Source: Thermoplasmatota archaeon
Lineage (GTDB): Archaea; Thermoplasmatota; Penumbrarchaeia; Penumbrarchaeales; Penumbrarchaeaceae
Assembly: GCA_965234725.1 (NCBI GenBank)
Contig: CBDDUX010000054.1
Location: 1-38,376 of the forward strand
Length of the DNA stretch: 38,376 bases
Reading direction: 5' to 3'
Shown here: positions 2,545 to 33,267 of the stretch, in pieces
Position numbering within the stretch: the first letter of the stretch is position 1
Layout: the number at the start of each line of letters is the position of its first letter
Position numbers and translations under genes: made by a program
Notes under the pieces: model-generated
What the model was told of the DNA's origin: nothing
Database searches by the model: none
The model's input: only the letters and a program-made list of their open reading frames with translations

Positions 2545-2879
2545 TTTTACAGATCATCCCATTCTCTCAGAGGTAGATTGTTGATATTCAAATACTTCAT
2601 GATTTCAATATTGTGAATAAAAAAAATCCGACAACTTCCTAAATCCCCCAAAAGAGGCATACATTTATGAATTTTTTATTAGTATCCTCAAGGGTTTTCC
2701 AGCGATTACTAGGGTCGTTTCCGACTTGCGCACGTTTTTCGCAAAAAAAATCATCTCATTGACTTGATATTCGTTCAAGAACGTGACGGTTCAGTGAGAA
2801 GGATTCCTTTACTGGATCCCATTTTCTTCCATTCAAGATAAGATAAGTTCAGTATCTCATTTCGAAGGGTCCTGGATCT

Positions 2880-6540: not shown

Positions 6541-7410
6541 ATGGTCGACCCCCCAGTTTACAAGAACGTCTTTCAGAAGATGATGGAACTTTATAGTTTC
6601 CCCGGGAAGCCATCGGCAATCGAAAGGTACTGGGTGGCGGACCTGGAGGAGAACCAATATAAGAGACTTGAAGGGCCTGTAAACGATAAAAAACAGGAAT
6701 TCAACTCCCCACAAGAGGCCGGAGAGGTTATCAGGAGCTTCGCAAAAGCTTGCGGTGCGGACCTGGTGGGATTCACGAATATCACAGAGGACCTCATATT
6801 CAAAGGAGCTGAAGTGAAAGGAAAGTATGCCATCTCTCTCGGATTCGAGATGGATTACGATGCCATATATACAGCTCCGGACCCCCCTGCCGGGATCGAA
6901 GCACTCAGGGCCTACTGGAGGCTGGGGTGGATCGTGATGAAGGTCTCCGAGTTCATAAGGTCCCTCGGATACCAGGCCCAGGGACATCAGGTGAGGACCT
7001 TTCTCGGTGATCCCCCGACTGTCCTGCACACCCTCACTGCGATGAGGGCAGGTCTTGGAGAAGTGGGGAGGTCCGGGATCCTCATCACTCCTGAATTAGG
7101 ACCGAGGCTACGGGTTGGAACCGTCACAACTGAATTGGAACTCCCAATTTCAGGGGAGAGGACCTTCGGAGTTGATGAGTTCTGCTCCCACTGTACGATC
7201 TGTGCTGATAAATGCAAAGGTGAGGCCATTCCCTATGAGAAGAAAATTGAGAGAGGTGTCCTGAAATACACCATCGACTACGATAAATGCCTTCCCGAGT
7301 TCGCAAAGTACGATGGCTGTGGGATATGCATCAAGGTATGTCCTTTCAATAGAAAACCGGAGGAGATGGAGTGGTTCCTGAAGAGTGTTGAGAAAATGAG
7401 AACAGATTGA
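6541..7410 (+). CDS. Reductive dehalogenase / epoxyqueuosine reductase (RdhA/QueG) family cobalamin and 2x[4Fe-4S] protein
   Basis: Motifs GADLVGF and AGLGEVGRSGILITPELGPRLRVGTVTTEL; clusters FCSHCTICADKC and C-x9-CGICIKVCP. No Tat signal. Confidence 0.8.
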   Translation: MVDPPVYKNVFQKMMELYSFPGKPSAIERYWVADLEENQYKRLEGPVNDKKQEFNSPQEAGEVIRSFAKACGADLVGFTNITEDLIFKGAEVKGKYAISLGFEMDYDAIYTAPDPPAGIEALRAYWRLGWIVMKVSEFIRSLGYQAQGHQVRTFLGDPPTVLHTLTAMRAGLGEVGRSGILITPELGPRLRVGTVTTELELPISGERTFGVDEFCSHCTICADKCKGEAIPYEKKIERGVLKYTIDYDKCLPEFAKYDGCGICIKVCPFNRKPEEMEWFLKSVEKMRTD

Positions 7411-11046: not shown

Positions 11047-11066
11047 GTAATATAATCATATTCGGT

Positions 11067-15223: not shown

Positions 15224-15363
15224 ATTTACGTCAATAAGTAAAAAAATGGAAAAATGAAAGTCATTTTGAAACATTAATTTTATTAACCTAATGAGGTTAA
15301 AGGAAAATGCGTCTTATCTAAAAAGTGAAGTCGCCCTCAAACCCCCTCCGGAGGATCTTCCCA

Positions 15364-18300
15364 ATGAGTCCTGACAGAGTAAACACCATACTGAGTATCA
15401 ATAGAGATGTAATTTTATACAGTTCACCGGCACAAAAGGATGTCAAATCCGTATTGGAGGCATCAGAAAAAGGTGCCTTAGGTGTCCTGGACATGGAATA
15501 CCTCGATGCTGCCTTCATTACCGAAGCGGTCACAACACTCAATGGTTCATCACTTCCATTCGGTGTCAGGATAGATCCCATGAGCGACAAGCTCATGACA
15601 CTCATGGCAGGAGATGTCCCCAAGGACATGAGGCTCCTGATCTCTATCTCCAAGGAGGGCCTCCCGGCAATGGTCAGGTCCGGTATTTACGATACCGCCC
15701 ATGAGATGAACATCAAGGTCTTCCAGGAGGTTTGTGCCAAGGAAGAGGCTGAGGATTCTGTTGAAGGTGGCTGTGACGGTCTTATCATCAGACCATACGA
15801 AGGTGGAGGAAGGGTATCCTCCTCGAACCTCGTTGATCTATTGAAGGAGATCCGTACCGTCTCCAAGAACGTTCCAGTCCTGGTCCGGGGAGGTTTCAGT
15901 TCAGATTCTATCGATAAGCTTGATGTTGAAGGCTATGTAGTCGACCAGGAACTACTCGGACCACGATCCCTTCCCGAACCAGTAAGGAATAGGATCTCCC
16001 AAAACAAGAATGTCTCCATTATCACGTTGATGAAGGACATTGGCAGGACAATGCGCTTCATTGCAGGGTCAGATGAGAAGAAGAAATTGGAGGCTCTCGA
16101 GAAGGATATGATGTCCGACGGTGCCTCACCCAAGGAGTTGTACAAGGCATTGAAGAAGGAGACCACCGAACTCCTTGAAGAGACCATGAATGGAAACGCT
16201 CTTCTTTATCCGGCAGGAGAATATGCACTTAGCGGACCTTCCATGGATCTTGATTCCATATTCGGTGGGCCAGGAACAATACACGCACACATCACCTCAG
16301 CAGAGGCCACTGTGGATGGAAAGCCTGTTCCAGCTGAATATCATGATAAATCCATTGCGATCGTCGGTATGGGCACTGTATTTCCCAAAGGCATAGGGTT
16401 GAATACATTCTGGAAGGCGGTCTTGGATGGTGTGGATGCTTGTATGGAGATACCTCCCGACAGGTGGGATTGGAGGCTTCATTACGATCCTGACCCGTCG
16501 GTTCCCAACAAGACCTATTCTAAAATAGGGGCATTCATCACGGATTTCGAGTTCAACTCATTCGATTTCAAGATCCCCCCCAAGGTTGCGGAACTCATCG
16601 ATCGTTACCAGAGGTACGGTCTGGTCGCAACAAAGGAAGCATTGAACGATTCCAAGCTAATGGAAACAAAAGGCCTGGATACTAACAGGGTTGGCGTGAT
16701 CGTTGCCAATTCAGCCGGGGGAGAGAACAGGGACTGGGTGGCTACCAGGATAAACTTCGAGGAGGTCCATGGATGGATGCAGGAGACCGATATCTGGAAG
16801 GACCTCCCCGAGGATGCCAGGAAGAAGCTCTACGAACAGACCAGAAAGAAGGTTGATGACAATACGATAGAGATCACAGAGGACACCATGCCGGGTTCCC
16901 TCCCTAACATCGCTTCCGGAAGACTGGCAAATATATTCAATTTCAGAGGGCCGAATATGATCACCGACGCCGCATGTGGATCGGCCCTTGCCGCAATGTT
17001 CGTTGCGAGGAATTCTCTCCTTCTGAAGCAAATTGATGCGGCTGTCTCCGGTGGGTTAGAGTCCTTGATGGCATCCCATGGGTTCGTTGAGTTCTGCAAG
17101 ATAGGTGCACTGACCCCCGACGGGTCCAGACCATTCTCCGATGGAGCAAACGGTTTCCTTATGGGAGAAGGAGCCGGTATAGTCATCCTGAAAAGATTGG
17201 ATGATGCGGTGGAGGCCGGAGACAAGATCTATGCTGTTATCAGAGGTATTGGCGGATCATCCGATGGTAAAGGAAAGGGAATAACAGCTCCCAATCCAGA
17301 GGGTCAGAGGTTGGCTGTTGTGAGGGCCATGGAGGATGCCGGAATAGACCGCAGCACCATATCCTTCATCGAGGCACATGGTACATCGACCGCTGTTGGT
17401 GACGTTGCTGAGGTCAATTCTCTGAAAACCGTCTTTGGAGGACTTCCCAGGAACTCAATTGGCCTCACCTCGGTTAAGTCCCAGATCGGTCACCTCAAAT
17501 CCGCTGCCGGAGTGGCCGGTGTTGTCAAAGCTGCAATGGCTGTTCATGAAAAGGTCCTTCCTCCCCAGATCAATTTTGACAAACCCAACCATTACATCAA
17601 TTGGGAGGAGACACCGTTCTATGTCATAACCGAGTCGAAAGATTGGGAGAGGATCTCTCCGGATATTCCCAGGAGATGTTCCGTTTCAGCTTTCGGGTTC
17701 GGTGGGACCAATTTCAATGTGGTTCTGGAGGAGTTCGACAGGGAAATCTATGATTCCTGGAAGAAGGCAAAGGAAGATACTGGAAAACCCTCGATCCCCC
17801 TTCCCGAACCAGAGGTAAAGACAGCAACGGTATCCATTGAAGCCGAGATCTCAGTTGACATGGATAAGGTAAGGGCGTACCTTGAAACGGAAGGCCACAA
17901 GGAAGGAGAAGCATTCCTTTTCTCATCGGATAATCCACTGGACCTCCTCAAACAGGCATCTGTATCCGTCGCAAAAGCTCGAGGTATCGTGGAAAAAGGA
18001 GGAAGGTTCAGGGATGCTTTCGAGATGCCCTCATATGATGGAAGGTACCGGCTGGGGATCATGGCAAAGGACCCTGACCATTACGAGAAACAGGTAGAGA
18101 CATTAAAGAAAGTGGGAATGAACGAGAAAGCCCTCATGGCCCTTGCCAACAAAGGTATATTCGTCGGGGATAAAGAGAGAATAGACCATGGTAAGGTCTG
18201 TTTCATGTTCCCAGGGCAGGGATCGCAGTACATCAACATGTTTCGGGACCTGGCGGAAAAATACAAGCCGGTCATGGAAGCGTTCAATGATGCTGACAGG

Positions 18301-21300
18301 GTCATGTCAGATCTGATAGAGAAACCTCTTTCTTCATATGTGTTCCAGGACCTGAAAAGGGGTGATGAAGGGTTCGACGAGGCGGCCGATACCCTTCGGA
18401 GGACCGAGTTCAACCAGCCATCCATGCTGACCGTGGATACAGCCATGTACAAGATGCTTTTGAGGCTGGGTGTCGAACCCGATCTGGTCATGGGTCATTC
18501 TTTGGGTGAGTACGGGGCCCTTATCGCATCGGGGATCATGAGCTTCGATGACGCGCTCAGAGCTGTTTCCGCAAGGGGAAAGGAGATGCGGGACCTCAAA
18601 GTGGATGATGTGGGAAAGATGGCCTCCGTGATGGCCGGACTGAAGGAGGTCGAAGAGGTCCTGAAGGATATCGAAGGTTATGTCATCCCTGCTAACAAGA
18701 ACTGCCACATCCAGACCGTTATTGCCGGGAACACGGAACCAATGGAGGAAGCTGTTAGGAAGTTCAAGGAAAAAGGGATCGAAACCGTTTTCATCCCTGT
18801 ATCCCACGCTTTCCACAGCGAGGTTGTAGCCCCCGCAAAAGTCCCATTGAGGAACTACCTATCGAAACTGGATATAAGACCTCCGAGGATTCCCATACTC
18901 TCCAATGTTACAGCCGATCTCTATCCCATGGAAGGAACTCCCGAGGAGCTCAAGGAACAGGTCCTCGACCTTCTGAAGGAACAGGTTGCACATTCCGTTG
19001 AGTGGATGGGAGAGATCGACAGGGCTTACAAGGAGGGTTGCAGGACATTCATCGAGGTCGGACCTAAAAGGGCCTTGACCTCCTTTGCATACAATCTGAT
19101 GGAAGATGATGTGAAGAAGGGACGGGTCTTCCCGATCACATCCAATCATCCCAAGAAAGGGGGGATACAGACCTTCAACGAGCTGGTTGCTTCACTGTGG
19201 TCGCTGGGATTCGATCTGAAGGTCCCTGACCTCAAGGATCAAAGCTACTACAACAAGGAGTTCATTGAGGCTTTCGAACCATTCACCACGAAGATGAAGG
19301 TCCCGGAAAAGAGGGTGTTCGAGGTTCCGATTGCCCAGGAGAAAACCAACCCGATATCATTCGAGACCTTCAGATCAGAGAATTCCGATCTCGTAGATGA
19401 GCTCCTTAAGAAGGTGTACGAGAGGATCCCCTCCAGTTCTTCCTCCAGCGAGTCATCCAGAATGGATGTCGATCTCACTGGTATCGGATCGACGGTCCCT
19501 TCAAGAAAAGGAGTCAAAGTTGTGATCTCCGGGGCTGCAATGGGCCTTCCAGGAACATTCAAAGGGGTCTTCGATCCCAACAACCTTGGTTATCTTGTGG
19601 AGGGAAGGAACCTCATCGGCAACATGGATGAAAGATACCTGGAAAGATTCATTGACAAGCATATAGTAAGACTTGACAAGAAACCGGACGGAAGCGCAGA
19701 AATGGTGACATTGAACCATCCATCCATGGTGGTGAAGCTCTCCGGAAAGCTGGGTTCCTTCGATCTTGTGGAGGAATTCGGTGTCCCGAAAGCATTGAAC
19801 GATGTTTTGGATATCACAACAAGGCTTGCTTTTGCCTCAGGTCTGCTGGCACTGAAGGATGCAGGTATTCCACTTGTGAAACGTTATGCACAGACCTCAA
19901 CAGGTTCCTTCCTCCCCGAGGAATGGGAGCTGCCGCTGGAGATGCAGGAGGATACCGGAATACTATTCGCCTCCGCATTTCCTGGAACGAACAATCTGAT
20001 AGACGAGTTGACATCCTACTTCGAAGCGAAGATGTCCAGATCGAGCAATGAGGAAAAGGCAAGGTTATACGAACAGCTCAGAGCAAAGGTGAAGGGCACA
20101 GATGCGGAAAAGGAGCTAGACGCCTGGTACAGTTCATCCCTAGAGGAACCTGAATCGAAGTACGATTTCCCCAGGCTCTTCATGTTCAAGGTCCTGGCCA
20201 TGGCCCATTCTCAGTTCGCTCAATATATCAAGGCCAAGGGACCCAATACCCAGGTGAACTCTGCCTGTGCTTCATCGACTCTTGCAATATCCATCGCTCA
20301 GGACTGGATACAGATGGGGCGCTGCAAGAGGGTCATAGTCCTTGGAGCAGATGACCCAGCCTCCGATACCATGATCGAATGGTTCGGTTCTTCCCTTCTT
20401 GCCATGGGAGCGCTCACACCGGAACGGGATGTGACCCAGGCAGCCCTTCCTTTCGACAGAAGGAGGAAGGGAATGATAATCGGCTCAGGAGCCGCTGCTC
20501 TTATCGTGGAAGCTGAGGAGGAACCGGGAAGAAGGGGAATGAATCCAATAGTAGAGATCCTTGGATCTCATATAGCAAATTCAGCTTTCCACGGATCCAG
20601 GCTTGACATCGCCCATATCGCCCGGTCCATGGACCATTTCATAACAGGTATGGAAAAGGAATGGTCAATGGACAGGAACGTGATGGCACCTGATCTGATA
20701 TTCATGTCCCATGAGACCTATACACCCGCAAGGGGCGGGTCCTCTGCAGCCGAAGTGGAATCACTGAGGAGGACCTTCGGAGAGAGATACAGGGACATCC
20801 TGATAATGAACACCAAAGGTTACACAGGTCATGCTTTCGGAGCATGCATCGAGGACCCGGTCTTGGTGAAATGTCTGGAAGAGGGCGTCTCCATTCCTCT
20901 TTCCAACCTCACTCCTGATCAGATCGATCCTCAGTTCGAAGGTCTCCAGCTTTCAAGCGGAGGTCATCACAACAGGCACTATGGACTGAGGATCGCCGCC
21001 GGGTTCGGTTCACAGCTGGCATTCCTTTTGATTAGAAAACCTGATACCAGTGGAAGGTTCAAAGATGATCAGAAGTATAAGTCCTGGCTCAACTCGGTGG
21101 CCACAACACAACCTGTGGAACTGGAGGTGTATCTGAACAATCTCAGGTTGAAGGACAGTGGAAGGGATAACCTCATCCCGCATATGGCCGTCAAAAGAGG
21201 ATCATCCGTCATTGGTTACAAAAAGGACACCATGGAGGATGTGGACCAGGAACGGTTCGATCATTACAAGGAAGGGGTCCTTGAAATATTCTCGAAGAAG

Positions 21301-24300
21301 ACGGATATTCCCATCGAGATGATCGATATAGATTCCGACCTTGAGAACGATCTGGGTATCGATACCGTCAAACAGGTGGAGCTCTTCGGAACTGCCAGGA
21401 TCGCTTTCGAACTACCCAAGGATGAAGGTGTGAATCTCAGGGATTATCCAACTCTCCGTCATGTCATTCTGTATATTATGTCAAAGAAAGAGGCAACCAA
21501 CGGCTGGAAGAAAGAGGACAAATCAGAAAATGAAGAAGTCGAAAAGGAAACCTCTGTAGAGGAACCTTTGAAGGCGGTCGAATCAGCAGGTACTAACTGG
21601 GATTCGATCAAGGATAGGGTGGTTGTCCTTGTCTCACAGAAGACTGGGTACCCTATTGATATGCTGGACATAGACCTTGACCTGGAAGCGGACCTTGGGA
21701 TCGACACCGTGAAACAGGTAGAACTTTTCGGAATGGCCAGGGGCGAGTTCGATCTTCCCAGGGATGATACCATCAATCTCTCCGAGTTCAATACACTCAG
21801 AAAGATAGTGGATTACGTAGTGGGCCAATCCTCCAAGGAAGTAGAGGGGGCGATCCCAAAGATCGAGGAAGTTGAACCGGTGAAGGAAGAAGAGCCGGTG
21901 GAAGAAGAGACTCAACCAGAACCTAAGATACCGGCTACCGGTGATGGCTGGGATTCCATGAAGGACCGTGTTATCGAAATCGTGGCGGAGAAGACCGGTT
22001 ACCCTACAGATATGCTTGAGCTGGATCTCGATCTGGAAGCGGACCTGGGAATAGACACCGTGAAACAGGTGGAACTTTTCGGAATGGCCAGGAGCGAGTT
22101 CGATCTTCCCAGGGACGATACCATCAATCTTTCAGAGTTCAATACACTCAGAAAGATAGTGGATTACGTTGTAGGCCAGTCCTCTAAAGGAGTAGTGGAA
22201 AAGGTTCCAGAGATCGAGGAAGTTGAACCGGTGAAAGAAGAAAAGCCGGTGGAAGAAGTGCCTGAAGAAGAACAGGAGGCTGGATCACCAGCAACCGGTG
22301 ATGGCTGGGATTCCATGAAGGACCGTGTCATTGCCATCGTGGCGGAGAAGACCGGTTACCCTACAGATATGCTTGAGCTGGATCTCGATCTGGAAGCGGA
22401 CCTGGGAATAGACACCGTGAAACAGGTGGAACTTTTCGGTATGGCCAGGAGCGAGTTCGATCTTCCCAGGGATGATACCATCAATCTTTCAGAGTTCAAC
22501 ACTCTCAGAAAGATCGTGGATTATGTTGTAGGCCAGGCTTCCAAGAAGGTGGTGGAAGAGGTTCCAAAGATAGAGGAAGTTGAACCGGTGAAAGAAGAAA
22601 AGCCGGTGGAAGAAGAGATTCAACCAGCATCCGAACCTGAACAAGAGGCAAAATCACCAGCATCCGGTAGCAACTGGGATTCGGTCAAGGACCGTGTTAT
22701 CGAAATCGTGGCGGAGAAGACCGGTTATCCAGTCGATATGCTTGAACTCGACCTTGACCTGGAAGCGGATCTGGGGATCGACACCGTGAAACAGGTAGAG
22801 CTATTCGGGATGGCAAGGGGAGAGTTCGACCTTCCAAGAGACGATTCCATCAACCTATCCGAGTTCAACACTCTCAGGAAGATAGTGGATTATGTTCAGG
22901 GAATGGTAGTTTCCAAGAAGGAATCTATCTCATTAAAAGAAGAACCTGTAGAGGAAAATGAGGTTCCGGAGGTTGATGAAGACTACCATTGGGAGAACGT
23001 CAAGGAGAAGGTCGTGACCATTGTTGCTGAAAAGACCGGATATCCCGCTGACATGCTGGAACTCGACCTTGACCTTGAGGCGGACCTTGGAATAGACACT
23101 GTGAAGCAGGTTGAACTTTTCTCCATGGCAAGAAGTGAGTTCGATATTCCCAGGGACGATTCCATAATTCTATCGGAATTTCCCACGTTGAGGCATATCA
23201 TAGATTTCGTTTCAAAGAAGACCCTTGAGGGTAAAGGATCCGAAGTGGCAGACAATAAAGAAGAGGTTCCCGCTCAGGAAAAGGCCCTTTCGATCGAGGA
23301 ACTGAAATGTAGGATCAACAGATGGGTCCTTCAGGCCGATGAGAGAGAACCTCTCTCCGGTTCCAAAGGAAAACCCCTTGAGGGAAAGACATTACTCGTC
23401 TTCGGAGGCCTGAAAGAAGAAATCGGTATCCTGGAGGAGGTCCTGGGCTGTAAAGCGGAACCGATGGACCCCAATGAAGCATCAGAGATGGAGCTGGACC
23501 TGTCCGGATATGATGGTATCTTGAACCTCTATTCCTTCAGATTGTCCAGGGGACCATATCCGGCAGAATGGGAGAAGGAGAACCATCTGGCTATCAAGGT
23601 CCTTTTCAGAATCGTCAAGTCAATGGACAAGGTTTTCAAGAAGGGAGGTTTCCTTCTTTCCATAACAAGGATGGGAGGAAGGTTCGGACTTGGAAGGGAT
23701 ATAAATCCGATAAACGGTGCCATCTCAGGATTCACCAAAGCCGTTCACAGGGAATACAAGGATACAAGAGCAATGGTTCTGGACATTCCCGATGAGTTCG
23801 ATCTCAACCAGGCTGTGAGCAGACTTGGAGATGAGCTATCTGCCGATCATGGACTTCCGGAGGTTGGGTGGGACGGATCGATGGGTTACAGACCGGTTCT
23901 GAGGATAGTGGAACCAGGCGAACCTTCATTTCTGGAGATCAAGGATGGAATGAACATCCTGATCACCGGAGGAGGCTCCGGGATCACAGCCGAGATAGCA
24001 AGGGGACTCTCGAATGTGGCTTCCCTGAAGCTTCATCTTACCGGACGGACAAAGGTCCTTGAGGATGTTGAAAAGTTCGCATCGATGGATGAGAATGGTC
24101 TGGAAGCCGAGAAGGAGGCGATCAAGGAGAAGCTTAAGGCCTCCGGAGAGAAGGTGACTCCCGTGAAGATCGACCGGGAGTTCTCAATAATTACGAAATC
24201 CATATCCATACAACGGTTGTTGAAAGATATTGAAACCAACGGTTCTGAAGGTACCTATCATTCTATCGATGTGACAGATGTTGAGGGAATGAAAGAACTG

Positions 24301-26547
24301 GCTGTAACTTTCGGGCCATTCGATATGGTGGTCCATGCTGCTGGTATAGAACAATCCAAACTGATCGCGAACAAGACAGAGGAGGATTTTGCAAGGGTCT
24401 TCGATACAAAAGTCAAAGGGGCTCTTTCACTCCTTGAGGCGACTCGGGAACATCCTTTGAAGTTGTTCCTCTCGTTCTCTTCGGTTGCAGGCAGGTTCGG
24501 TAACGCGGGACAGGTGGATTATGCCGCTGCCAATGACCTTCTTTCCAAACTTCCGGGAGCGGTCAGGTCCCTCCATCCCAATTGTGTTGTCAAATCGGTC
24601 GGATGGTCGGCATGGTCCGATGTGGGGATGGCCAGTAAAGGATCTATCAAGACGATCCTGGAAATAGGCGGGATCACTTTCATCCCTGTCGATCAGGGTG
24701 TCAGATTTGCAATTGATGAACTTGGATCAGGTAAGGAGAGGGAAGTCCTCTATTCTGGATCGATGGGACCACTGGACCGTGAGTGTTCCATGAGATGGGA
24801 GGAAGGCATCAATGTACCATCTGATGAATATATCTCAGAACTGGAAAAGGAGATACCTCTCAAGCAGATGGAAGAAGTTATCGAGGAAGAAGAAGTCACC
24901 GAAGTGGAGGAAGAGAGCCAAATAGAGTTACCTTCCAACACTCCGATGGATCCAATATCTCCTCTTGTGGACAGGATAGTCGAGAAGGATGATACCTCGA
25001 TCGTTGCGATCAAGGTTCTTGATATCAACAGGGAGAGGTTCCTTCCGGACCACTCTGTGATGGGTACACCTGTCCTTCCAGGTGTGATGGGATTGGAGGT
25101 ATTTGCCGAGGTAGCAAAATTGCTCAGACCCGATCTGGATGTCATAGGTCTTTCTGAGGTCCAATTCAAGAAGCCGGTCAATGTCAAGGACACACTGGAG
25201 ATCAAGATCTCAGGGAAGATAGAGGACGATGATGAGCTTGAAAAGACAGTCAACATCAGACTGACCTCAACGGATCCCAAGAAGAAGAAAGAGATCGTCC
25301 ATTTTATCGGTAATGTCATCTTGGGGAATTCCGAGGATGTTTGCAGGATCCAGGACGGCCACCCTTTGAGACCGGACTCCGTCAAAGCCCAGGTCCTTAG
25401 AGATGAGATCTATCAGCATCTTTTCCATGGACAGCTGTTCCAGGTGACCGCGGGCATGTCCGTATTGACATCCGAGGAGCTGCTTGGAACCTTCAGGATA
25501 CCAGAGGGTCCACAGTTCGAACCGAAAACTGGCTGGACGGATGGAGACCTGCAAACACCAGCCCTCCATACTGAATTGGGATTTCAAGTGGCAGGTGCAT
25601 ATGTTCTCGACCGCTTCGATATGATGGCGCTTCCGGTAAAAGTCGGAAGGATCTCCTATTCCTCCAGGATACGGACGGATGAGAAGGCCTTCGCATGGGT
25701 CCGTTTCAAGGGTCAGGAGGAGAACGAGTTCTCTTTCGATGTGGACATCATAGACCCCAGCGGAAACGTGAGGTTCTCCTATCAGGATTATAGATTGAAG
25801 GGTCTGATGGCCAGCAAGGTTGACCTCCAGGGGGACCACTCCATACCGTTCGAAGAGGTCCCTTCCCCCATCAAGGGGATCAAGGTGTTCAGGCTGGATG
25901 TTGATGCCTTCACAACGGAACTTGATGTGGTCAAGGACCATTTCTCCGAGGATGAATGGGCCTCCCTTGTCAATGAAAAGATGAGTGACAAGAGAAAGAG
26001 GGAGCATGTGCTTGGGAGGGTGATATCCAAGCTTGCGGTTTCCTGGTACGTGAACATCAGCGAGGCCAGACCGGTATCTCTCACCAATATCAGCATCCAG
26101 ACAGAAGATGGTGGAAGACCGTTCGCGATCCTCGATGGGAAGAGGATCGAGATATCGATATCACATTCCCACAGATGGGCCATTTGTTCGGTTGGCGACA
26201 AACAGCATGGATGCGACATCGAACTGGCAGAGTCAAGGGACAGGGCCTTCTCGGATGAGGCTTTCGATCAAGGAGAGGTTCAACTGATGAAGAGGATCCA
26301 GGAAGAAATGGATATAGGCGAGCCACTTGCCCAGACCTTGCTGTTCTCATCAAAGGAGGCCTATTTGAAGATGATAGGTACAGGGTTGAGGACGGACCTG
26401 AAAAAGGTCGCTTGCACTGATGTTTTAATACTTCCGGCAAGGACCGGACTTGCTTTCGAAGTCCTTGTCGGACATGATGATAAGATATCAAAGGTCGAGG
26501 CCAGTGTCGCATCAGCATATGTATTGACGATCTGTTCAAAATCATAA
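15364..26547 (+). CDS. Single-chain iterative type I fatty acid/polyketide synthase: ER-like(FabK/NMO)-KS-AT-KS-ACPx6-KR-DH-PPTase
   Basis: The ORF is open from GTG 15325; ATG 15364 is preferred because GGAGG lies at 15350-15354 (3727 aa). KS1: DAACGS (Cys 16975), HGTST (17377), GHLKSAAG (17491). AT: FPGQGSQ, GHSLG (Ser 18499), HAFH (18805). KS2: NSACASS (Cys 20266), HETYT (20710), TGHAFGA (20830). Six ACPs with LGIDTVKQVELF. KR: TGGGSGI and GQVDYAAAN (Tyr 24520). DH: HSVMGTPVLP (His 25051). PPTase: SISHS, GCDIE, FSSKEAYLK. Confidence 0.95.
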   Translation: MSPDRVNTILSINRDVILYSSPAQKDVKSVLEASEKGALGVLDMEYLDAAFITEAVTTLNGSSLPFGVRIDPMSDKLMTLMAGDVPKDMRLLISISKEGLPAMVRSGIYDTAHEMNIKVFQEVCAKEEAEDSVEGGCDGLIIRPYEGGGRVSSSNLVDLLKEIRTVSKNVPVLVRGGFSSDSIDKLDVEGYVVDQELLGPRSLPEPVRNRISQNKNVSIITLMKDIGRTMRFIAGSDEKKKLEALEKDMMSDGASPKELYKALKKETTELLEETMNGNALLYPAGEYALSGPSMDLDSIFGGPGTIHAHITSAEATVDGKPVPAEYHDKSIAIVGMGTVFPKGIGLNTFWKAVLDGVDACMEIPPDRWDWRLHYDPDPSVPNKTYSKIGAFITDFEFNSFDFKIPPKVAELIDRYQRYGLVATKEALNDSKLMETKGLDTNRVGVIVANSAGGENRDWVATRINFEEVHGWMQETDIWKDLPEDARKKLYEQTRKKVDDNTIEITEDTMPGSLPNIASGRLANIFNFRGPNMITDAACGSALAAMFVARNSLLLKQIDAAVSGGLESLMASHGFVEFCKIGALTPDGSRPFSDGANGFLMGEGAGIVILKRLDDAVEAGDKIYAVIRGIGGSSDGKGKGITAPNPEGQRLAVVRAMEDAGIDRSTISFIEAHGTSTAVGDVAEVNSLKTVFGGLPRNSIGLTSVKSQIGHLKSAAGVAGVVKAAMAVHEKVLPPQINFDKPNHYINWEETPFYVITESKDWERISPDIPRRCSVSAFGFGGTNFNVVLEEFDREIYDSWKKAKEDTGKPSIPLPEPEVKTATVSIEAEISVDMDKVRAYLETEGHKEGEAFLFSSDNPLDLLKQASVSVAKARGIVEKGGRFRDAFEMPSYDGRYRLGIMAKDPDHYEKQVETLKKVGMNEKALMALANKGIFVGDKERIDHGKVCFMFPGQGSQYINMFRDLAEKYKPVMEAFNDADRVMSDLIEKPLSSYVFQDLKRGDEGFDEAADTLRRTEFNQPSMLTVDTAMYKMLLRLGVEPDLVMGHSLGEYGALIASGIMSFDDALRAVSARGKEMRDLKVDDVGKMASVMAGLKEVEEVLKDIEGYVIPANKNCHIQTVIAGNTEPMEEAVRKFKEKGIETVFIPVSHAFHSEVVAPAKVPLRNYLSKLDIRPPRIPILSNVTADLYPMEGTPEELKEQVLDLLKEQVAHSVEWMGEIDRAYKEGCRTFIEVGPKRALTSFAYNLMEDDVKKGRVFPITSNHPKKGGIQTFNELVASLWSLGFDLKVPDLKDQSYYNKEFIEAFEPFTTKMKVPEKRVFEVPIAQEKTNPISFETFRSENSDLVDELLKKVYERIPSSSSSSESSRMDVDLTGIGSTVPSRKGVKVVISGAAMGLPGTFKGVFDPNNLGYLVEGRNLIGNMDERYLERFIDKHIVRLDKKPDGSAEMVTLNHPSMVVKLSGKLGSFDLVEEFGVPKALNDVLDITTRLAFASGLLALKDAGIPLVKRYAQTSTGSFLPEEWELPLEMQEDTGILFASAFPGTNNLIDELTSYFEAKMSRSSNEEKARLYEQLRAKVKGTDAEKELDAWYSSSLEEPESKYDFPRLFMFKVLAMAHSQFAQYIKAKGPNTQVNSACASSTLAISIAQDWIQMGRCKRVIVLGADDPASDTMIEWFGSSLLAMGALTPERDVTQAALPFDRRRKGMIIGSGAAALIVEAEEEPGRRGMNPIVEILGSHIANSAFHGSRLDIAHIARSMDHFITGMEKEWSMDRNVMAPDLIFMSHETYTPARGGSSAAEVESLRRTFGERYRDILIMNTKGYTGHAFGACIEDPVLVKCLEEGVSIPLSNLTPDQIDPQFEGLQLSSGGHHNRHYGLRIAAGFGSQLAFLLIRKPDTSGRFKDDQKYKSWLNSVATTQPVELEVYLNNLRLKDSGRDNLIPHMAVKRGSSVIGYKKDTMEDVDQERFDHYKEGVLEIFSKKTDIPIEMIDIDSDLENDLGIDTVKQVELFGTARIAFELPKDEGVNLRDYPTLRHVILYIMSKKEATNGWKKEDKSENEEVEKETSVEEPLKAVESAGTNWDSIKDRVVVLVSQKTGYPIDMLDIDLDLEADLGIDTVKQVELFGMARGEFDLPRDDTINLSEFNTLRKIVDYVVGQSSKEVEGAIPKIEEVEPVKEEEPVEEETQPEPKIPATGDGWDSMKDRVIEIVAEKTGYPTDMLELDLDLEADLGIDTVKQVELFGMARSEFDLPRDDTINLSEFNTLRKIVDYVVGQSSKGVVEKVPEIEEVEPVKEEKPVEEVPEEEQEAGSPATGDGWDSMKDRVIAIVAEKTGYPTDMLELDLDLEADLGIDTVKQVELFGMARSEFDLPRDDTINLSEFNTLRKIVDYVVGQASKKVVEEVPKIEEVEPVKEEKPVEEEIQPASEPEQEAKSPASGSNWDSVKDRVIEIVAEKTGYPVDMLELDLDLEADLGIDTVKQVELFGMARGEFDLPRDDSINLSEFNTLRKIVDYVQGMVVSKKESISLKEEPVEENEVPEVDEDYHWENVKEKVVTIVAEKTGYPADMLELDLDLEADLGIDTVKQVELFSMARSEFDIPRDDSIILSEFPTLRHIIDFVSKKTLEGKGSEVADNKEEVPAQEKALSIEELKCRINRWVLQADEREPLSGSKGKPLEGKTLLVFGGLKEEIGILEEVLGCKAEPMDPNEASEMELDLSGYDGILNLYSFRLSRGPYPAEWEKENHLAIKVLFRIVKSMDKVFKKGGFLLSITRMGGRFGLGRDINPINGAISGFTKAVHREYKDTRAMVLDIPDEFDLNQAVSRLGDELSADHGLPEVGWDGSMGYRPVLRIVEPGEPSFLEIKDGMNILITGGGSGITAEIARGLSNVASLKLHLTGRTKVLEDVEKFASMDENGLEAEKEAIKEKLKASGEKVTPVKIDREFSIITKSISIQRLLKDIETNGSEGTYHSIDVTDVEGMKELAVTFGPFDMVVHAAGIEQSKLIANKTEEDFARVFDTKVKGALSLLEATREHPLKLFLSFSSVAGRFGNAGQVDYAAANDLLSKLPGAVRSLHPNCVVKSVGWSAWSDVGMASKGSIKTILEIGGITFIPVDQGVRFAIDELGSGKEREVLYSGSMGPLDRECSMRWEEGINVPSDEYISELEKEIPLKQMEEVIEEEEVTEVEEESQIELPSNTPMDPISPLVDRIVEKDDTSIVAIKVLDINRERFLPDHSVMGTPVLPGVMGLEVFAEVAKLLRPDLDVIGLSEVQFKKPVNVKDTLEIKISGKIEDDDELEKTVNIRLTSTDPKKKKEIVHFIGNVILGNSEDVCRIQDGHPLRPDSVKAQVLRDEIYQHLFHGQLFQVTAGMSVLTSEELLGTFRIPEGPQFEPKTGWTDGDLQTPALHTELGFQVAGAYVLDRFDMMALPVKVGRISYSSRIRTDEKAFAWVRFKGQEENEFSFDVDIIDPSGNVRFSYQDYRLKGLMASKVDLQGDHSIPFEEVPSPIKGIKVFRLDVDAFTTELDVVKDHFSEDEWASLVNEKMSDKRKREHVLGRVISKLAVSWYVNISEARPVSLTNISIQTEDGGRPFAILDGKRIEISISHSHRWAICSVGDKQHGCDIELAESRDRAFSDEAFDQGEVQLMKRIQEEMDIGEPLAQTLLFSSKEAYLKMIGTGLRTDLKKVACTDVLILPARTGLAFEVLVGHDDKISKVEASVASAYVLTICSKS
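21265..23215 (+). repeat. Tandem array of six ACP-coding repeats with Glu/Pro/Val/Lys-rich linkers
   Basis: The conserved Thr codons are at 21364, 21706, 22057, 22414, 22783 and 23098 (spacing 315-369 nt). Copies 3 and 4 are nearly identical at DNA level. Confidence 0.95.
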
Positions 26548-26585: not shown

Positions 26586-28541
26586 ATGGTGAAGAAGAGC
26601 AATATACTTGGAGGGGCAGGCGAGACAGTTCTGCTCACTGGGAACGAAGCGGTAGCCAGGGGCTGTTTAGAGGCAGGACTTGCAGTCGGTACCGCCTATC
26701 CGGGAACACCCGCGTCGACCATTATGGAGAAACTTGGTGAGGTAGCCCCCGAACTGGGTTTCTGGGCCGAATTCTCGGTGAACGAGGCCGTTGCCTTTGA
26801 GGTGGCGGCAGGATCGGCCCTTGCCGGTGTGAGATCGTTGATGTCTACAAAAATGCTTGGGGTCAATCTGATCGCCGATGCCCTCACCGTGATATCTGTC
26901 ACCGGTGTAAGGGGTGGATTGGTGATCATAACAGCTGACGATCCTCAACAGTTCTCCTCTCAGAATGCGGAAGATACCAGATTCTTCGCAATGCTGGCCA
27001 AGGTCCCTGTCCTTGAACCCGCAGACGGACAGGAAGCCAAGGACATGGTGAAGTATGCCTTCGAACTGTCCGAACAGCTTGAGCTTCCGGTGTTTTTAAG
27101 GATCACTCCAAGGATATGCCATTCTTCCTTCGATGTGGAGCTGGCTGAGATCAGGAAACCGAAATTGGACGGAAAGTTCGTGAGGGATCCCAAGAGATTC
27201 GTCATGATATCCACTTACTCCAGGCCCAGACAGTCTATCCTCAATGAGAAGATGGATAAGGCCAAGGAGATCTTCAACGATAATGAATGGAACTATGAGG
27301 TGGATTTCCAGAACGGTAAACAGGTGAAGAAGGGTGAGGCCTTCAACACATTCGGTATAATTGCATCAGGTCTTACCTATCACTACATCGAGGAGGTCCT
27401 GGAGGTAACAAAGGTAAATGCCAGGGTCTTGAAGCTTGCGACAACATATCCCTTACCAGAGGATCTCATAGCAAACTTCATCTCCAGATTGGACCAGGTC
27501 CTGATCGTCGAGGAGAACGAGGGTGTTACAGAGATGCTTACAAGGGCCCTCGCCCAGAAAAGAAGGATAGATGTTAGGATCATGGGCAAGGACGATGGTC
27601 TGATCCCATTGGCAGGCGAACTGAATCCGGATATCGTGGGAGGGGCATTCCAGAAGATATTCGGAGTCAAGTTCACCGAAGAGCTTACGGAACCTTATCT
27701 CGAGGCAGAGGAGATGGTATCCAAGAGGGTTCCCGCACTATGCGCTGGTTGTCCCCACAGGGCTTCATTCTTTGCAATAAAGGAGGCTTTGAGGAGGAAG
27801 GGAAAGGGGGGTGCGATAATGGGGGACAGAGGATGTTACAATCAGGGAGCATATGAACCCCTTGAAGGTATGGATACCTGCATATGCATGGGGGCCTCCA
27901 TTGCAATGGCCTCCGGACTGGCCCACTCCGGTACGAACGAACCCGCTGTTTCCGTTATCGGCGACGGCACATTCTATCATGCCGGAATACCATCCCTCCT
28001 CAATGCGGTCCACAACCGGGCCAATATTGTCTCTTTGATCTTCGACAACTCCATAACCGCAATGACCGGACATCAGCTGAATCCCGGTTCAGGTGTCAAC
28101 CTGATGGGTCAGCATACAGGTTTTGCAAATCTGAAGAAGATCGTTGAAGCCTGTGGTGTCGAGAACGTCCGTGTCATCAATGCATTCGATACGGAGAAGC
28201 TTGTCAATGCCGTTATGGAAGAGATAGATAACGATGGTCCTTCTGTCATCATCTCCAGGTCACCCTGTGCCTTGGTCGTGGAGAGGAACATCAGGAAGCG
28301 AAAGATGAAGTTTCCCAGAGCAGTGGTGGATATCGACAAGTGTGTGGGATGCAAGGTCTGCATGAAGAAGATAGGATGCCCTGCATTTGGATGGAGTGAT
28401 GATCCCAAACAGCATCTGGAGATCCTTCCTCACTGCAACGGATGCGGATTATGTGTTGAAATGTGCCCGTTCGGTGCGATCTCGGTCCCAGACAAACCAA
28501 AGGGAACACTTGGTATCACCGTCAGGGAGGGGAAGAAATGA
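26586..28541 (+). CDS. iorA: Indolepyruvate:ferredoxin oxidoreductase alpha subunit
   Basis: LLTGNEAVARG, AYPGTPAS, SVNEAVAFEVAAG, DDPQQFSSQNAEDTR, LCAGCPHR, the TPP-binding motif GDGTFYHAG...DNSITAMTGHQ, and a C-terminal 2x[4Fe-4S] (CVGCKVC...GCP; CNGCGLCVEMCP). Confidence 0.95.
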   Translation: MVKKSNILGGAGETVLLTGNEAVARGCLEAGLAVGTAYPGTPASTIMEKLGEVAPELGFWAEFSVNEAVAFEVAAGSALAGVRSLMSTKMLGVNLIADALTVISVTGVRGGLVIITADDPQQFSSQNAEDTRFFAMLAKVPVLEPADGQEAKDMVKYAFELSEQLELPVFLRITPRICHSSFDVELAEIRKPKLDGKFVRDPKRFVMISTYSRPRQSILNEKMDKAKEIFNDNEWNYEVDFQNGKQVKKGEAFNTFGIIASGLTYHYIEEVLEVTKVNARVLKLATTYPLPEDLIANFISRLDQVLIVEENEGVTEMLTRALAQKRRIDVRIMGKDDGLIPLAGELNPDIVGGAFQKIFGVKFTEELTEPYLEAEEMVSKRVPALCAGCPHRASFFAIKEALRRKGKGGAIMGDRGCYNQGAYEPLEGMDTCICMGASIAMASGLAHSGTNEPAVSVIGDGTFYHAGIPSLLNAVHNRANIVSLIFDNSITAMTGHQLNPGSGVNLMGQHTGFANLKKIVEACGVENVRVINAFDTEKLVNAVMEEIDNDGPSVIISRSPCALVVERNIRKRKMKFPRAVVDIDKCVGCKVCMKKIGCPAFGWSDDPKQHLEILPHCNGCGLCVEMCPFGAISVPDKPKGTLGITVREGKK

Positions 28542-29161
28542 ACGTGATCCTTTGCGGGGTAGGTGGAAATGGTGTGGTCTTGACCACTCGGATCATTGCT
28601 GAAGCAGCCCTGAGGGAAAGAACCAAGGTAAGGGTGGGAGAGGTCCACGGTCTTGCAATGAGAGGTGGAACTGTTGTTTCACATCTGAGACTTGGTTCCG
28701 ATGCAAAGGGCGTACTGGTTCCCCAGAGGAAAGCGGATATCCTCCTTGCCTTCGAACCACTTGAAGCATTGAGACAGATGAAGTTCCTCAAGAGGGGGGC
28801 GAAGGTCATCCTTAACAATGAGCCTTATGTCGGTGTCGATGCCCATCTGGGTCTTTCAAGATATCCTGAGGTTTGCGATATCCTGGAAAAGATCCAGGCC
28901 TCCCAGGATCTCGTTGATGTACCTGCCACAAAGCTGGCGATCGAAGCGGGTGGAGCAGTAATGACAAATGTTGTGATGCTCGGAACGCTTTCAGCTTCCA
29001 AGGAGCTTCCCATAGGCCGTGATTCGCTTATAGAGGCGATCAAGTCAAGAGTACCTCCGATGATGGTCGATGCCAATATCAAGGCCTTCGAGCTCGGTGA
29101 GAAGGCTTTCAAGGAATGGGAAGCCAACAGGGTCTGCGAGATCAAGGACCCCACCCAATAG
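28538..29161 (+). CDS. iorB: Indolepyruvate:ferredoxin oxidoreductase beta subunit
   Basis: The ATG overlaps the iorA stop (ATGA) with GGGAGG upstream, so the track start at 28463 is too long. Motifs NVILCGVGGNG, GEVHGLAMRGGTVVSHLRLG, AFEPLEALR, NVVMLG, NIKAFELG. Confidence 0.93.
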   Translation: MNVILCGVGGNGVVLTTRIIAEAALRERTKVRVGEVHGLAMRGGTVVSHLRLGSDAKGVLVPQRKADILLAFEPLEALRQMKFLKRGAKVILNNEPYVGVDAHLGLSRYPEVCDILEKIQASQDLVDVPATKLAIEAGGAVMTNVVMLGTLSASKELPIGRDSLIEAIKSRVPPMMVDANIKAFELGEKAFKEWEANRVCEIKDPTQ

Positions 29162-29212: not shown

Positions 29213-30724
29213 TTGGAAGCAAATTGCAAGCGTGTGGATATTTCCACTGGAGGACATAGGGTAGTATATGTTCCCAGAAAGATCTCCGGAGAGCTGGACC
29301 TTCATCTCATGGACAGGGTCGAGGTTGTAAATGCAGCAGATCCCTCCATTACATCCATGGCATCCGTGCAGTTCTGGTCGGATCCCGGGAACCGGATAGG
29401 CCTATGCACCGAGCTTGCGGATGAGCTTCGCATCAGTGATGACGGTTTTCTTCTGTTCGTAGCCGTGGACAAACCTCTTTCCGTATCCCACATTGTTGAA
29501 CGGATGAACGGAAGCGAACTTACTGGTGATCAAATAGAAGTGGTAGTGGGCGATATCGCCTCGGACTCACTATCTCAGGTTGAGCTATCATGTTTCGTCA
29601 CATCCGCCACAATGCGAGACCTTTCCATGTCAGAGCTTTATGATCTGACAAGGTTCCTAGCGGAGTCCGGAGACACGTTTGACTGGGATGACCCCCTTGT
29701 TGCTGACAAACATTGTACAGGAGGCGTTCCAGGGAACAGGACATCTCCGATTGTCGTTCCGATCATAGCCTCTCTGGGAGTGAAGATACCCAAGGCGTCT
29801 TCCAGGGCCATAACCTCTCCCGCAGGAACGGCGGATGTCATGGAATCCGTATGCAATGTGGTATTCGAAAAGGAGAGGATAAAGGAGATAGTTGATAAGA
29901 CCGGAGGGTGCTTGATTTGGGGGGGAGGTCTAAATGTCGCTCCGGCGGATTCAAGATTGATAGGTGTCAGGAAGATGATAAGTTCCAATCCCGAGGGACT
30001 ACTGATATCTTCCATACTATCAAAGAAGTACGCCATGGGTTCGAAATATCTGCTTGTGGACATGCCAGTTGGCTTGGAGACCAGGTACCATTCCCTTGGA
30101 GAGGTCCGTCATATGGCCCAGAAGGTGAAGAAGATAGCTTCAATGTTGGGTATGAGAGCACAAGTGGAGATCACCTTCGGTGACGAGCCCATAGGGAACG
30201 GGATAGGTCCGAATCTGGAAACAAGGGATGTATTGCAGGTCCTCATGAACAGATCGGATGCTCCGATCGATCTCAAAGAGAAGGGGATCAGGATAGCCGG
30301 AAAGTTGATTGATCTCTTCGGACCGGATAGGTTCGGTCCCGACCATAAAGCGGGAGATGGTTTGGAGATTGCCAGGGAATGTCTTGATTCGGGAAAGGCA
30401 TTTTCCAAATTTCAGGAGATTGTTGAGGCTCAGGGAGGAGAAAAACCGCTGGATCCGGACAGGTTCAAGGGATCCTCCCATACGATTGAAGTGCGGGCCA
30501 CGAAGAATGGTCAGTTGGTTGATTACGATAACAGAGTAATTGCGAAGGTTGCAAGGCTGGCAGGAGCTCCCTCAAACAAGGAAGCGGGTCTGGACCTCTG
30601 CAGGAAATCAGGTGACATGGTCAGGTCCGGGGAACTGATCATGATGATACATGCCGGATCAGAATCCAGGAAGAAGTTGGTCAATAACCATCTGGAACAG
30701 AACAGGATCTATACGGTTGAATGA
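29213..30724 (+). CDS. AMP phosphorylase (archaeal-type thymidine phosphorylase family)
   Basis: TTG start after GGGTGA. Motifs DKHCTGGVPGNRTS, IPKASSRAITSPAGTAD, SILSKK and PIGNGIGPNLE, plus the N-terminal extension domain (DRVEV) typical of ~500 aa AMP phosphorylases. Confidence 0.88.
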   Translation: MEANCKRVDISTGGHRVVYVPRKISGELDLHLMDRVEVVNAADPSITSMASVQFWSDPGNRIGLCTELADELRISDDGFLLFVAVDKPLSVSHIVERMNGSELTGDQIEVVVGDIASDSLSQVELSCFVTSATMRDLSMSELYDLTRFLAESGDTFDWDDPLVADKHCTGGVPGNRTSPIVVPIIASLGVKIPKASSRAITSPAGTADVMESVCNVVFEKERIKEIVDKTGGCLIWGGGLNVAPADSRLIGVRKMISSNPEGLLISSILSKKYAMGSKYLLVDMPVGLETRYHSLGEVRHMAQKVKKIASMLGMRAQVEITFGDEPIGNGIGPNLETRDVLQVLMNRSDAPIDLKEKGIRIAGKLIDLFGPDRFGPDHKAGDGLEIARECLDSGKAFSKFQEIVEAQGGEKPLDPDRFKGSSHTIEVRATKNGQLVDYDNRVIAKVARLAGAPSNKEAGLDLCRKSGDMVRSGELIMMIHAGSESRKKLVNNHLEQNRIYTVE

Positions 30725-32709: not shown

Positions 32710-33162
32710 TCATGATCTCCAGGCTTCCTTCAATACCTCTTCGATCTTTTGATACAGGGGAGGATCATCATCATAGGTCAGCAATTCCCTGGCCTCATCG
32801 AAGGCCCTTATTGAAATATCCTTGTAATCCTCATCCCCCGTCAACTTCCAGAGTTCCAGATAGGCCAGTCCGAGCTCGAAGTGTGCCCGGGATGATCCGT
32901 GGGGGTCCCTTTCTTTGTTTAAGATGTTCATGGATTCCGTTAGGATCGAGATCGCCGATCTGAGCTTCTTCTCGGGATCATCAGAGATCAGAGATAGGTT
33001 GCGAAGGACCCTTCCCTTTTCATACATGGTCTTGGCATAAAGGTTCTCATATCTTCTACTGTCCTTGTCGTTCAATTCATTGTCAATGACCCTGAGGGTC
33101 TTCTCGAGGCCTTGTTTAACCTCCGAGATATCCCGGACCATCATTTTAATCCACACCTTCAT
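32710..33162 (-). CDS. TPR-like alpha-helical repeat protein
   Basis: YAKTMYEKGRVLRNLS...AISILTESM and SRAHFELGLAYLEL...SIRAFDEARELL fit a TPR-like pattern. The start codon is uncertain. Confidence 0.7.
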   Translation of the reverse strand: MKVWIKMMVRDISEVKQGLEKTLRVIDNELNDKDSRRYENLYAKTMYEKGRVLRNLSLISDDPEKKLRSAISILTESMNILNKERDPHGSSRAHFELGLAYLELWKLTGDEDYKDISIRAFDEARELLTYDDDPPLYQKIEEVLKEAWRS

Positions 33163-33267
33163 TGGTCTATATCGGTAATAATGGTAACTGATGTTCTTGC
33201 ACCGGAAAATGTATTAGTATCCAATAGAAATATTATTGATGTCCTTATTGAAAACGGGGAGGGAAAA

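Follow-up and report, generated by a model that had tools for sequence, protein, structure and literature searches.

A Type R-like megasynthase with threonine at its carrier sites in a Thermoplasmatota archaeon

Architecture of the megasynthase

The stretch of DNA analysed here (38,376 nucleotides, hereafter the window) is the entire contig C54 (CBDDUX010000054.1) of the assembly of a Thermoplasmatota archaeon from marine sediment (GCA_965234725.1; 3.54 Mb in 114 contigs, estimated 97.65% complete and 2.54% contaminated). It carries on the + strand a complete megasynthase gene of 3,727 codons plus stop (15364..26547). The frame is open without interruption over 15325..26547 and gives 3,740 aa when counted from a GTG. 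We retained the ATG at 15364, which has a GGAGG 9 nt on its 5′ side and opens the MSPD N-terminus common to the megasynthase and its close homologues, supporting this start. From this ATG, 3,727 residues follow with no internal stop, in agreement with the single uninterrupted open reading frame (ORF) claimed in an earlier, sequence-only reading of the stretch. The complete protein scored 1210.6 bits with the PfaA model (TIGR02813; curated cut-off 1010.1).

The domain order is a FabK-like head, a ketosynthase (KS1), an acyltransferase (AT), a second ketosynthase (KS2), six carriers, a ketoreductase (KR), a dehydratase (DH) and an Sfp-type phosphopantetheinyl transferase (PPTase). Pfam matches covered KS (residues 329-795), AT (944-1260), the carriers, KR (2865-3085), a polyketide synthase (PKS)-type DH (3200-3293) and an ACPS-type PPTase (3616-3686). 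Together with profile and structure matches, they bear out the eight domain types named in the sequence-only reading, in the order given there. Its likening of the protein to PfaA with a PPTase of its own is likewise upheld by the PfaA score and by the Pfam ACPS match described below.

What had been called an 'ER-like' (enoyl-reductase-like) head (residues ~1-300; 15364..16263, +) proved to be FabK-like, by profile, Pfam NMO, predicted fold and Foldseek. A single-sequence search against FabK structures in the PDB was weak (E 0.006), and a profile of 10 family members reached E 7e-15. Pfam NMO matched the head in nine of these 10 members. The AlphaFold model of the head had a pLDDT of 86.3 and its top 12 PDB matches by Foldseek were all FabK (TM 0.66-0.72), with FabX and PfaD lower. 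Judged by profile and predicted fold, the head is thus a FabK homologue with an FMN-type TIM-barrel fold. The histidine of the FabK GGH motif, which has a catalytic role, is replaced in the head by Arg150 (GGGR), invariant in all 10 members.

KS1 (residues 329-795; 16348..17748, +) was delimited by Pfam, with Cys538, His672 and His710 invariant. The AT (residues 944-1260; 18193..19143, +) matched Pfam and the FabD model (198 bits), has S1046 and H1148 invariant and shows GHSLG and HAFH motifs, which we take to be those of malonyl-specific ATs. KS2 (residues ~1385-1900; 19516..21063, +) contains a second PF00109 match (20137-20520) and was aligned through the PDB to FabF-type ketosynthases; its Cys1635, His1783 and His1823 are intact in this alignment and invariant in 11 archaeal and bacterial proteins. 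By these residues KS2 is active-looking, despite the name 'CLF' (chain length factor) given to this domain in Type R synthases. Behind the carriers, the KR with its structural subdomain (residues ~2640-3150; 23284..24813, +; Pfam) has S3040, Y3053 and N3057 invariant. The region after the KR gave matches to PKS dehydratases, then to AcpS and weakly to Sfp. It comprises a PKS-type double-hotdog DH (residues ~3190-3500; 24931..25863, +; Pfam), with H3230 within its HxxxGxxxxP motif, and the fused Sfp-type PPTase (residues ~3501-3727; 25864..26544, +; Pfam ACPS, 32.7 bits, cut-off 25). This two-lobed tail of ~230 residues hits AcpS at E 3e-4 and, more weakly, Sfp at E 0.016; it is homologous to stand-alone PPTase genes of bacterial clusters. 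In these alignments, the catalytic residues of KS1, AT, KS2, KR and DH are shown to be intact.

Threonine carriers and relation to Type R synthases

The six tandem carriers (21241..23283, +) each read LGIDTV, with threonine at residues 2001, 2115, 2232, 2351, 2474 and 2579. The array is made of a 357-nt unit in 3.5 copies with 85% identity, and six carriers were also observed in four other assemblies (G001, G003, G010 and G023; G000 is the genome studied here). The threonines, missed in the sequence-only reading, align on the phosphopantetheinylated serine of solved acyl carrier proteins (ACPs).

The carrier-site residue was scored in two sets. A protein search with the carrier array listed 120 proteins of 6,425 matches, a set picked by shared words and therefore biased to the motif. 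The Thr-carrier proteins among the 120 are all KS1-AT-KS2-carriers-KR-DH, and the bacterial ones are ~3,000 aa long with a KS1 45-50% identical. Scoring of 122 proteins with a carrier hidden Markov model gave 99 with threonine throughout, from the KS2-bearing family; six with serine in the first carrier and threonine in the others, all from the archaeal family; and 17 with serine throughout, all canonical PfaA without KS2 (Shewanella, Moritella, Colwellia, Psychromonas and Vibrio, with carriers reading LGIDSIKRVE). An unbiased recount was performed on the best 80 of at least 598 genome loci, located with AT and KS peptides only. Nine of these loci end before the carriers and were left out; the other 71 hold 238 carrier domains, with 231 threonines, two serines and five gaps. 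Since the exchange of serine and threonine in the archaeal family is confined to the first carrier, a hydroxyl is kept at that position.

A dedicated PPTase accompanies the synthase in most complete loci: among the best 80, 35 encode it in a gene of its own downstream and four as a fusion. Family f31 includes a complete single-contig genome in which a 253-aa PPTase gene comes directly after a 2,941-aa synthase. PPTase fusions were also observed in the archaeal families f47 and f35 and in part of f16, and are rare elsewhere. Hence we consider threonine quite likely to be the phosphopantetheine site of the carriers. On sequence comparison, threonine at the carrier site, paired with a dedicated PPTase, is a mark of Type R synthases as a whole, bacterial and archaeal alike.

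The Type R cluster was described by Shulse and Allen in 2011 (PMC3098273). According to the portion of that paper available to us, it holds one pfaA homologue with KS-MAT-CLF-ACP(3-6)-KR (MAT, malonyl-CoA acyltransferase) and a PPTase gene downstream, is hosted by Acidobacteria, Elusimicrobia and Chloroflexi, and makes an uncharacterised product. It shares with the megasynthase the single pfaA homologue, the arrangement KS-MAT-second KS-tandem carriers-KR, the associated PPTase, and a cluster without pfaB, pfaC or pfaD; some Type R members have an acetyl-CoA carboxylase (ACC) gene in their cluster. The archaeal protein differs from Type R in its C-terminally fused PPTase, its N-terminally fused FabK-like head, the active-site cysteine retained in its 'CLF' and its archaeal host, 'archaea' having no occurrence in the main text of the 2011 paper. 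The word 'threonine' does not occur in that main text either, and the acyl-CoA dehydrogenase (ACAD) and electron transfer flavoprotein (ETF) partners presented below were not met in its available portion, at which no search for them was aimed. The megasynthase very probably belongs to these Type R secondary-lipid synthases, as judged by sequence. It is a fused variant of a known, uncharacterised family common in bacteria, and not a new kind of system; the proposal that it represents an undescribed one does not stand. No follow-up literature on Type R was found beyond the 2011 paper, and for the gene in archaea only survey-level mentions of PKS clusters, subscription journals and supplements lying outside these searches. 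A Cariaco Basin paper reports, in its available portion, PKS transcripts from four Thermoplasmatota metagenome-assembled genomes, which may or may not be of the present synthase family.

Canonical PfaA (Shewanella, Moritella, Colwellia) resembles the megasynthase in its KS-AT-tandem carriers-KR-DH core, iterative logic and dedicated PPTase. In contrast, the megasynthase has KS2 between AT and carriers, absent from all 17 serine-type PfaA proteins, and six threonine carriers out of six where PfaA carriers have serine. PfaA also depends on PfaB, PfaC (carrying FabA-type dehydratases) and PfaD, and searches of the archaeal genome recovered none of the three. The enediyne synthases PksE (SgcE/CalE8 type) are iterative type I enzymes of KS-AT-carrier-KR-DH order whose C-terminal fused PPTase primes their own carrier. 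They have just one carrier and lack both a second KS and an ER-like head; their conjugated polyene is released by a partner thioesterase. The six carriers and KS2 set the megasynthase apart from PksE, a distinction drawn from PksE architecture as generally known and not from sequence. Another archaeal fatty-acid route has been proposed in Sulfolobus acidocaldarius (bioRxiv 10.1101/2024.07.05.601840), a fatty acid synthase (FAS) complex which, in the available portion of the preprint, consists of thiolase/DUF35, reductase and MaoC with no ACP. The megasynthase, in contrast, is ACP-dependent and has its own PPTase.

A scan of species-representative genomes returned at least 598 relatives of the megasynthase. 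The best 80 of them comprise 72 bacterial loci (Acidobacteriota, Elusimicrobiota, Chloroflexota, Myxococcota, Actinomycetota, Gemmatimonadota and others) and eight archaeal-labelled ones, and the ESM Atlas yielded only mixed bacterial/Thermoplasmatota KS clusters. A FastTree of KS1-AT was built with 108 rows of 127 sequences (18 without full KS1 and AT and one duplicate were left out). In this KS/AT phylogeny against PfaA, which the sequence-only reading had proposed, a starred branch with support 100 parts the KS2-bearing family from canonical PfaA. The proximal KS grouped with KS2-bearing Elusimicrobiota, Acidobacteriota (including Korobacteraceae-labelled ones) and Chloroflexota, in a tree set without the Type R strains of Koribacter, Solibacter, Elusimicrobium and Roseiflexus. 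In a wider FastTree (102 rows; eight loci without full KS1 and AT left out), archaeal copies fell into several deep-branching clades close to the family base, on a poorly supported backbone. Elusimicrobiota lay near families f1, f7 and f31, and the starred branches are compatible with a single archaeal origin. Since the archaeal clades are as deep in the tree as the bacterial ones, the family might even be of equal age in the two domains.

Residues 1-1300 of the megasynthase were used as query in 41 related genomes including its own, and the gene was found in 27: in 21 of the 23 genomes of its own family (f1), in all four of f7, in the single one of f5 and in none of the 12 from all other families. 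A survey for orthologues across the Thermoplasmatota, also proposed earlier, used the KS2 region and retrieved the gene in 133 of 401 sampled genomes, from 42 of 162 genera. Among the proteins and loci compared, the FabK-like head is fused only in this archaeal family.

Several variants of the gene were met during these comparisons. Copies from families f7 and f16 (G036, G032, G030 and G043) have no FabK-like head and carry one or two GIDT carriers N-terminal to KS1, with the look of a loading module. In several genera (genomes G008, G012, G013, G017 and G009, and protein P0004) a first ORF of ~2,100-2,200 aa ends behind KS2 and the first carriers, and the rest of the synthase lies in a second ORF; the latter is a 1,095-aa KR-DH-PPTase in G008, which has only two carriers. 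Recurring in several assemblies, the split may be real rather than an artefact of repeat assembly. In the congener G004, a TGA interrupts the synthase match at G004:C4:43488-47388, and a TAG and a TGA the giant ACC (see below) at G004:C13:31755-38082, by decay or assembly errors. Finally, a putatively archaeal 461-kb contig, labelled Candidatus Heimdallarchaeota, encodes a 3,574-aa version with a fused PPTase (L113:5853-16577), which forms a long branch near the base of the family tree.

Archaeal residence, neighbours and partner genes

The host is an archaeon, as had been proposed. A full-length 16S gene on contig C103 scored 1,515 bits on the archaeal model, which wins the clan competition, and the genome encodes geranylgeranylglyceryl phosphate (GGGP) synthase. 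Contig C54 fits its bin by tetranucleotide composition (r 0.986; bin median 0.975). Codon frequencies of the megasynthase correlate with those of the genome (r 0.911), above 92% of 300 long ORFs; the AGG/AGA-arginine and ATA-isoleucine habits noticed earlier were recovered (AGR/Arg 0.84 against 0.81 in the genome, ATA/Ile 0.31 against 0.30). Local GC is ~0.50 against 0.454 in the genome, and the adjoining iorA and iorB (26586..29161, +; 39 nt 3′ of the synthase) have the same GC. Contigs from an independent marine-sediment study bridge the junction of synthase stop and iorA start (X3 record 24, X2 record 13), and another spans the 5′ intergenic region into the megasynthase (X3 record 17). Named relatives are labelled Thermoplasmatales or Thermoplasmatota archaeon. 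We conclude that the megasynthase is resident in this archaeon with vertical inheritance: the long residence earlier proposed is shown by codon usage, synteny in other genera and presence in 21 of 23 family genomes. None of the three findings that would have overturned the sequence-only reading turned up, neither bacterial flanks nor a chimeric contig nor a known product for this architecture.

Upstream of the synthase lies a gene for a reductive-dehalogenase/QueG-like Fe-S protein (6541..7410, +), found 5′ of the synthase in four other family genomes and directly 5′ of it in G001 and G023; we regard it as a candidate functional link only. This gene and, downstream, an archaeal-type thymidine/AMP-phosphorylase-like gene (29213..30724, +), a conserved neighbour, recur around the synthase in other assemblies and other genera. 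The iorAB pair adjoins the synthase only in G000, G001 and G008 among the loci compared. Its adjacency being limited to some relatives, it was set aside as a supplier of starter units and is regarded as chromosomal context.

Other features of the window were recorded in passing. Two giant surface proteins of 1,209 and 1,245 aa with Big, PKD, NosD and FG-GAP domains (7417-14804, -) sit between the dehalogenase-like gene and the synthase only in the own genome and the congener G003. An unusual protein with HEAT/Armadillo repeats and a DnaJ domain at its C-terminus (33112-34596, +) is kept in G003 and weakly in G008. A 5′-open ORF (1-621, +) with DxDGDG-like Asp repeats and no Pfam match probably encodes a calcium-binding surface protein; that it could be the C-terminus of the synthase-proximal ACAD paralogue was ruled out (best E 1.3-1.6).

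Partner genes were counted around the synthase loci of the best 80 relatives. In bacteria, a ~560-aa ACAD-like gene lies directly upstream of the synthase (49 loci) and an ACC-like biotin protein gene downstream (39 loci), while genes for ETF-alpha (22 loci), ETF-beta (19 loci) and an Fe-S/CCG oxidoreductase (21 loci) lie further upstream. Archaeal genomes keep some of these genes next to the synthase: in G010 ACAD-ETFb-ETFa lies ~1.7 kb 5′ of it, with an ACAD 52% identical to a bacterial one, and in G006 a 2,142-aa single-chain ACC is directly 3′ of it. In the own genome they are located elsewhere. Contig C22 encodes a giant ACC of 2,145 aa, 70.5% identical to the G006 copy and homologous over its full length to the ~1,880-aa gene that separates synthase and PPTase in bacterial loci, and a long ACAD encoded where contig C6 ends shares 59% identity with a bacterial cluster ACAD. 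All components of the bacterial cluster being present in these archaea, the cluster is, by gene content, shared between the domains as a set.

The same genes follow the synthase across genomes. The long ACAD was found in 26 of 27 synthase-bearing genomes and in none of 14 others, the giant ACC in 16 of 27 and none of 14, and a PlsC-type acyltransferase in 26 of 27 and three of 14; the PlsC family gave no match in four archaeal control genomes. The own genome encodes two PlsC-type proteins, on contigs C62 and C35. With partners adjacent (G010, G006) or dispersed in archaea and phyletically tied to the synthase, and with ACAD/ETF and the giant ACC as conserved partners in bacteria, the idea of a self-contained, one-gene system becomes doubtful; the megasynthase probably works with partners encoded elsewhere. 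As a separate observation, all three g5 genomes (g for genus) have one in-frame TAG in the long ACAD match (G008:C39:9841-11487, G013:C4:43584-45230, G017:C331:2434-4080), which could point to a pseudogene common to the three, to read-through or to recoding.

The only PP-binding domains in the genome are the six of the megasynthase, and KS1 and KS2 are its only strong KS matches. As sole carriers and sole strong KS, they make the megasynthase the only ACP-dependent condensing system of this genome. PfaD and FabA/FabZ were not found in it (97.65% estimated completeness). Apart from the fused domain, the genome has one PPTase, a 125-aa AcpS-type gene (G000:C26:89000-89377; L117:3001-3378, +) that lies behind an NAD synthase gene and shares an overlap with the end of a gene for a GT1/GT4 glycosyltransferase, in a genome whose only carriers are the six of the megasynthase.

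Proposed function and competing explanations

Our preferred model, which we hold to be fairly likely, is that the megasynthase is an archaeal Type R enzyme, iterative and related to polyunsaturated fatty acid (PUFA) synthases, building a long acyl chain from malonyl units on its six carriers. The fused PPTase would place phosphopantetheine on the carrier threonines; it would be dedicated because ordinary PPTases expect serine. The AT would load malonyl-CoA, supplied by the co-inherited 2,145-aa single-chain ACC of C22, and elongation rounds would be split between KS1 and KS2. Each beta-keto group would be processed by KR and DH, with enoyl reduction by the FabK-like head, by the co-inherited long ACAD with ETF, or by both. 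As there is no thioesterase, the chain is probably released by acyl transfer, for which the PlsC-type acyltransferases co-occurring with the synthase would be the best candidates. With slightly less confidence, we expect the product to be a long, largely reduced acyl chain.

Several observations weigh against parts of this model. The arginine in place of the GGH histidine may leave the head inactive or with other chemistry, and FabX, a dehydrogenase/isomerase, has the same fold. The long ACAD could simply serve beta-oxidation. Its synthase-proximal paralogue, which lies near the synthase in G002, G003, G010, G012 and G018, was not found in the own assembly, and the giant ACC was not found in the synthase-bearing genera g5 and g7 nor in most of g6. 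The relatives share kinship, so that the co-occurrence counts overstate the support and are suggestive. Searches of the genome for GpsA and PlsY gave no hit, and a full bacterial phospholipid route is therefore not supported.

These points bear on the alternative that a specialised lipid (a polyene, a very-long chain with hydroxy groups or unsaturation, or a hydrocarbon precursor) is made instead of a saturated membrane fatty acid, with head and ACAD acting as dehydrogenases or isomerases or only in some cycles. We hold this to be the less likely outcome, though one of real weight. A canonical enoyl reductase is lacking, the FabK histidine is replaced, and FabX matches the predicted fold of the head, though below FabK. 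Moreover, the usual direction of an ACAD working with ETF and an Fe-S/CCG protein is oxidative, and the megasynthase has two KS domains, as do PUFA synthases, in which different KS domains serve different rounds. Type R was also classed as a 'secondary' lipid synthase in bacteria having FAS II (PMC3098273, available portion). Against this alternative, genome searches found no FAS II for ordinary acyl chains in this archaeon. No FabA-type isomerising dehydratase was found in the genome either, PlsC-type acyltransferases co-occur with the synthase, and six tandem carriers suggest a high flux, from what the available portion of the same paper says on carrier number. A second alternative concerns the carriers themselves: without phosphopantetheine on threonine, the array would be inactive or would hold intermediates otherwise, e.g. 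as oxygen esters. We found no published report of phosphopantetheine on threonine, subscription journals, supplements and ~1.7 million PMC articles lying outside the search. To our knowledge, moreover, the Ser36Thr mutant of the Escherichia coli ACP is not modified by AcpS. Such an array seems improbable all the same, given threonine at 231 of 233 scored sites over many phyla with the catalytic residues all intact, a PPTase alongside or fused to the synthase in most complete loci, and the interchange of serine and threonine at the first carrier.

That bacterial DNA was mis-binned, or chimerically assembled, into an archaeal bin is extremely improbable, even with a family mainly bacterial in its named loci (72 of the best 80) and a local GC of ~0.50 above the 0.454 of the genome. 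The iorAB genes have this same GC and the codon correlation is 0.911, the same flanks recur in other assemblies, and the independent contigs bridge both the synthase/iorA and the 5′ junctions. The gene is in 21 of 23 family genomes and also in the complete single-contig genome of another family. Chimerism and contamination are thus rejected on 16S, GGGP synthase, composition, codon use, synteny and independent contigs.

Returning to the preferred model of an archaeal Type R enzyme, three aspects appear unreported so far: the breadth of the synthase in Thermoplasmatota, the conserved ACAD/ETF/ACC partnership and the family-wide threonine carrier site with a dedicated PPTase. Should the threonine be modified, this chemistry would be new to carrier proteins, and PPTase and carrier might serve engineering as an orthogonal pair. 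For Type R, whose product has been uncharacterised since 2011, an unusual module that reduces or desaturates enoyl groups in trans is suggested by the conserved ACAD-ETF-Fe-S genes.

Textbooks, and a 2024 preprint (bioRxiv 10.1101/2024.07.05.601840, available portion), describe archaea as lacking FAS I as well as FAS II and as having ACP or ACP synthase only in the rarest cases. In the present case, whole archaeal families stably pass on, by vertical inheritance, a gene for an ACP-dependent megasynthase that brings its own PPTase, accompanied by a malonyl-CoA supply and by acyltransferases lacking in the four archaeal control genomes. It is conceivable, though we rate it as rather unlikely, that one large share of the Thermoplasmatota makes fatty-acyl chains on an ACP-dependent type I synthase with threonine-bound phosphopantetheine, and that PlsC-type transfer of these chains to glycerolipids yields mixed ether/ester membranes. 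Through the megasynthase, the 'lipid divide' becomes directly testable.

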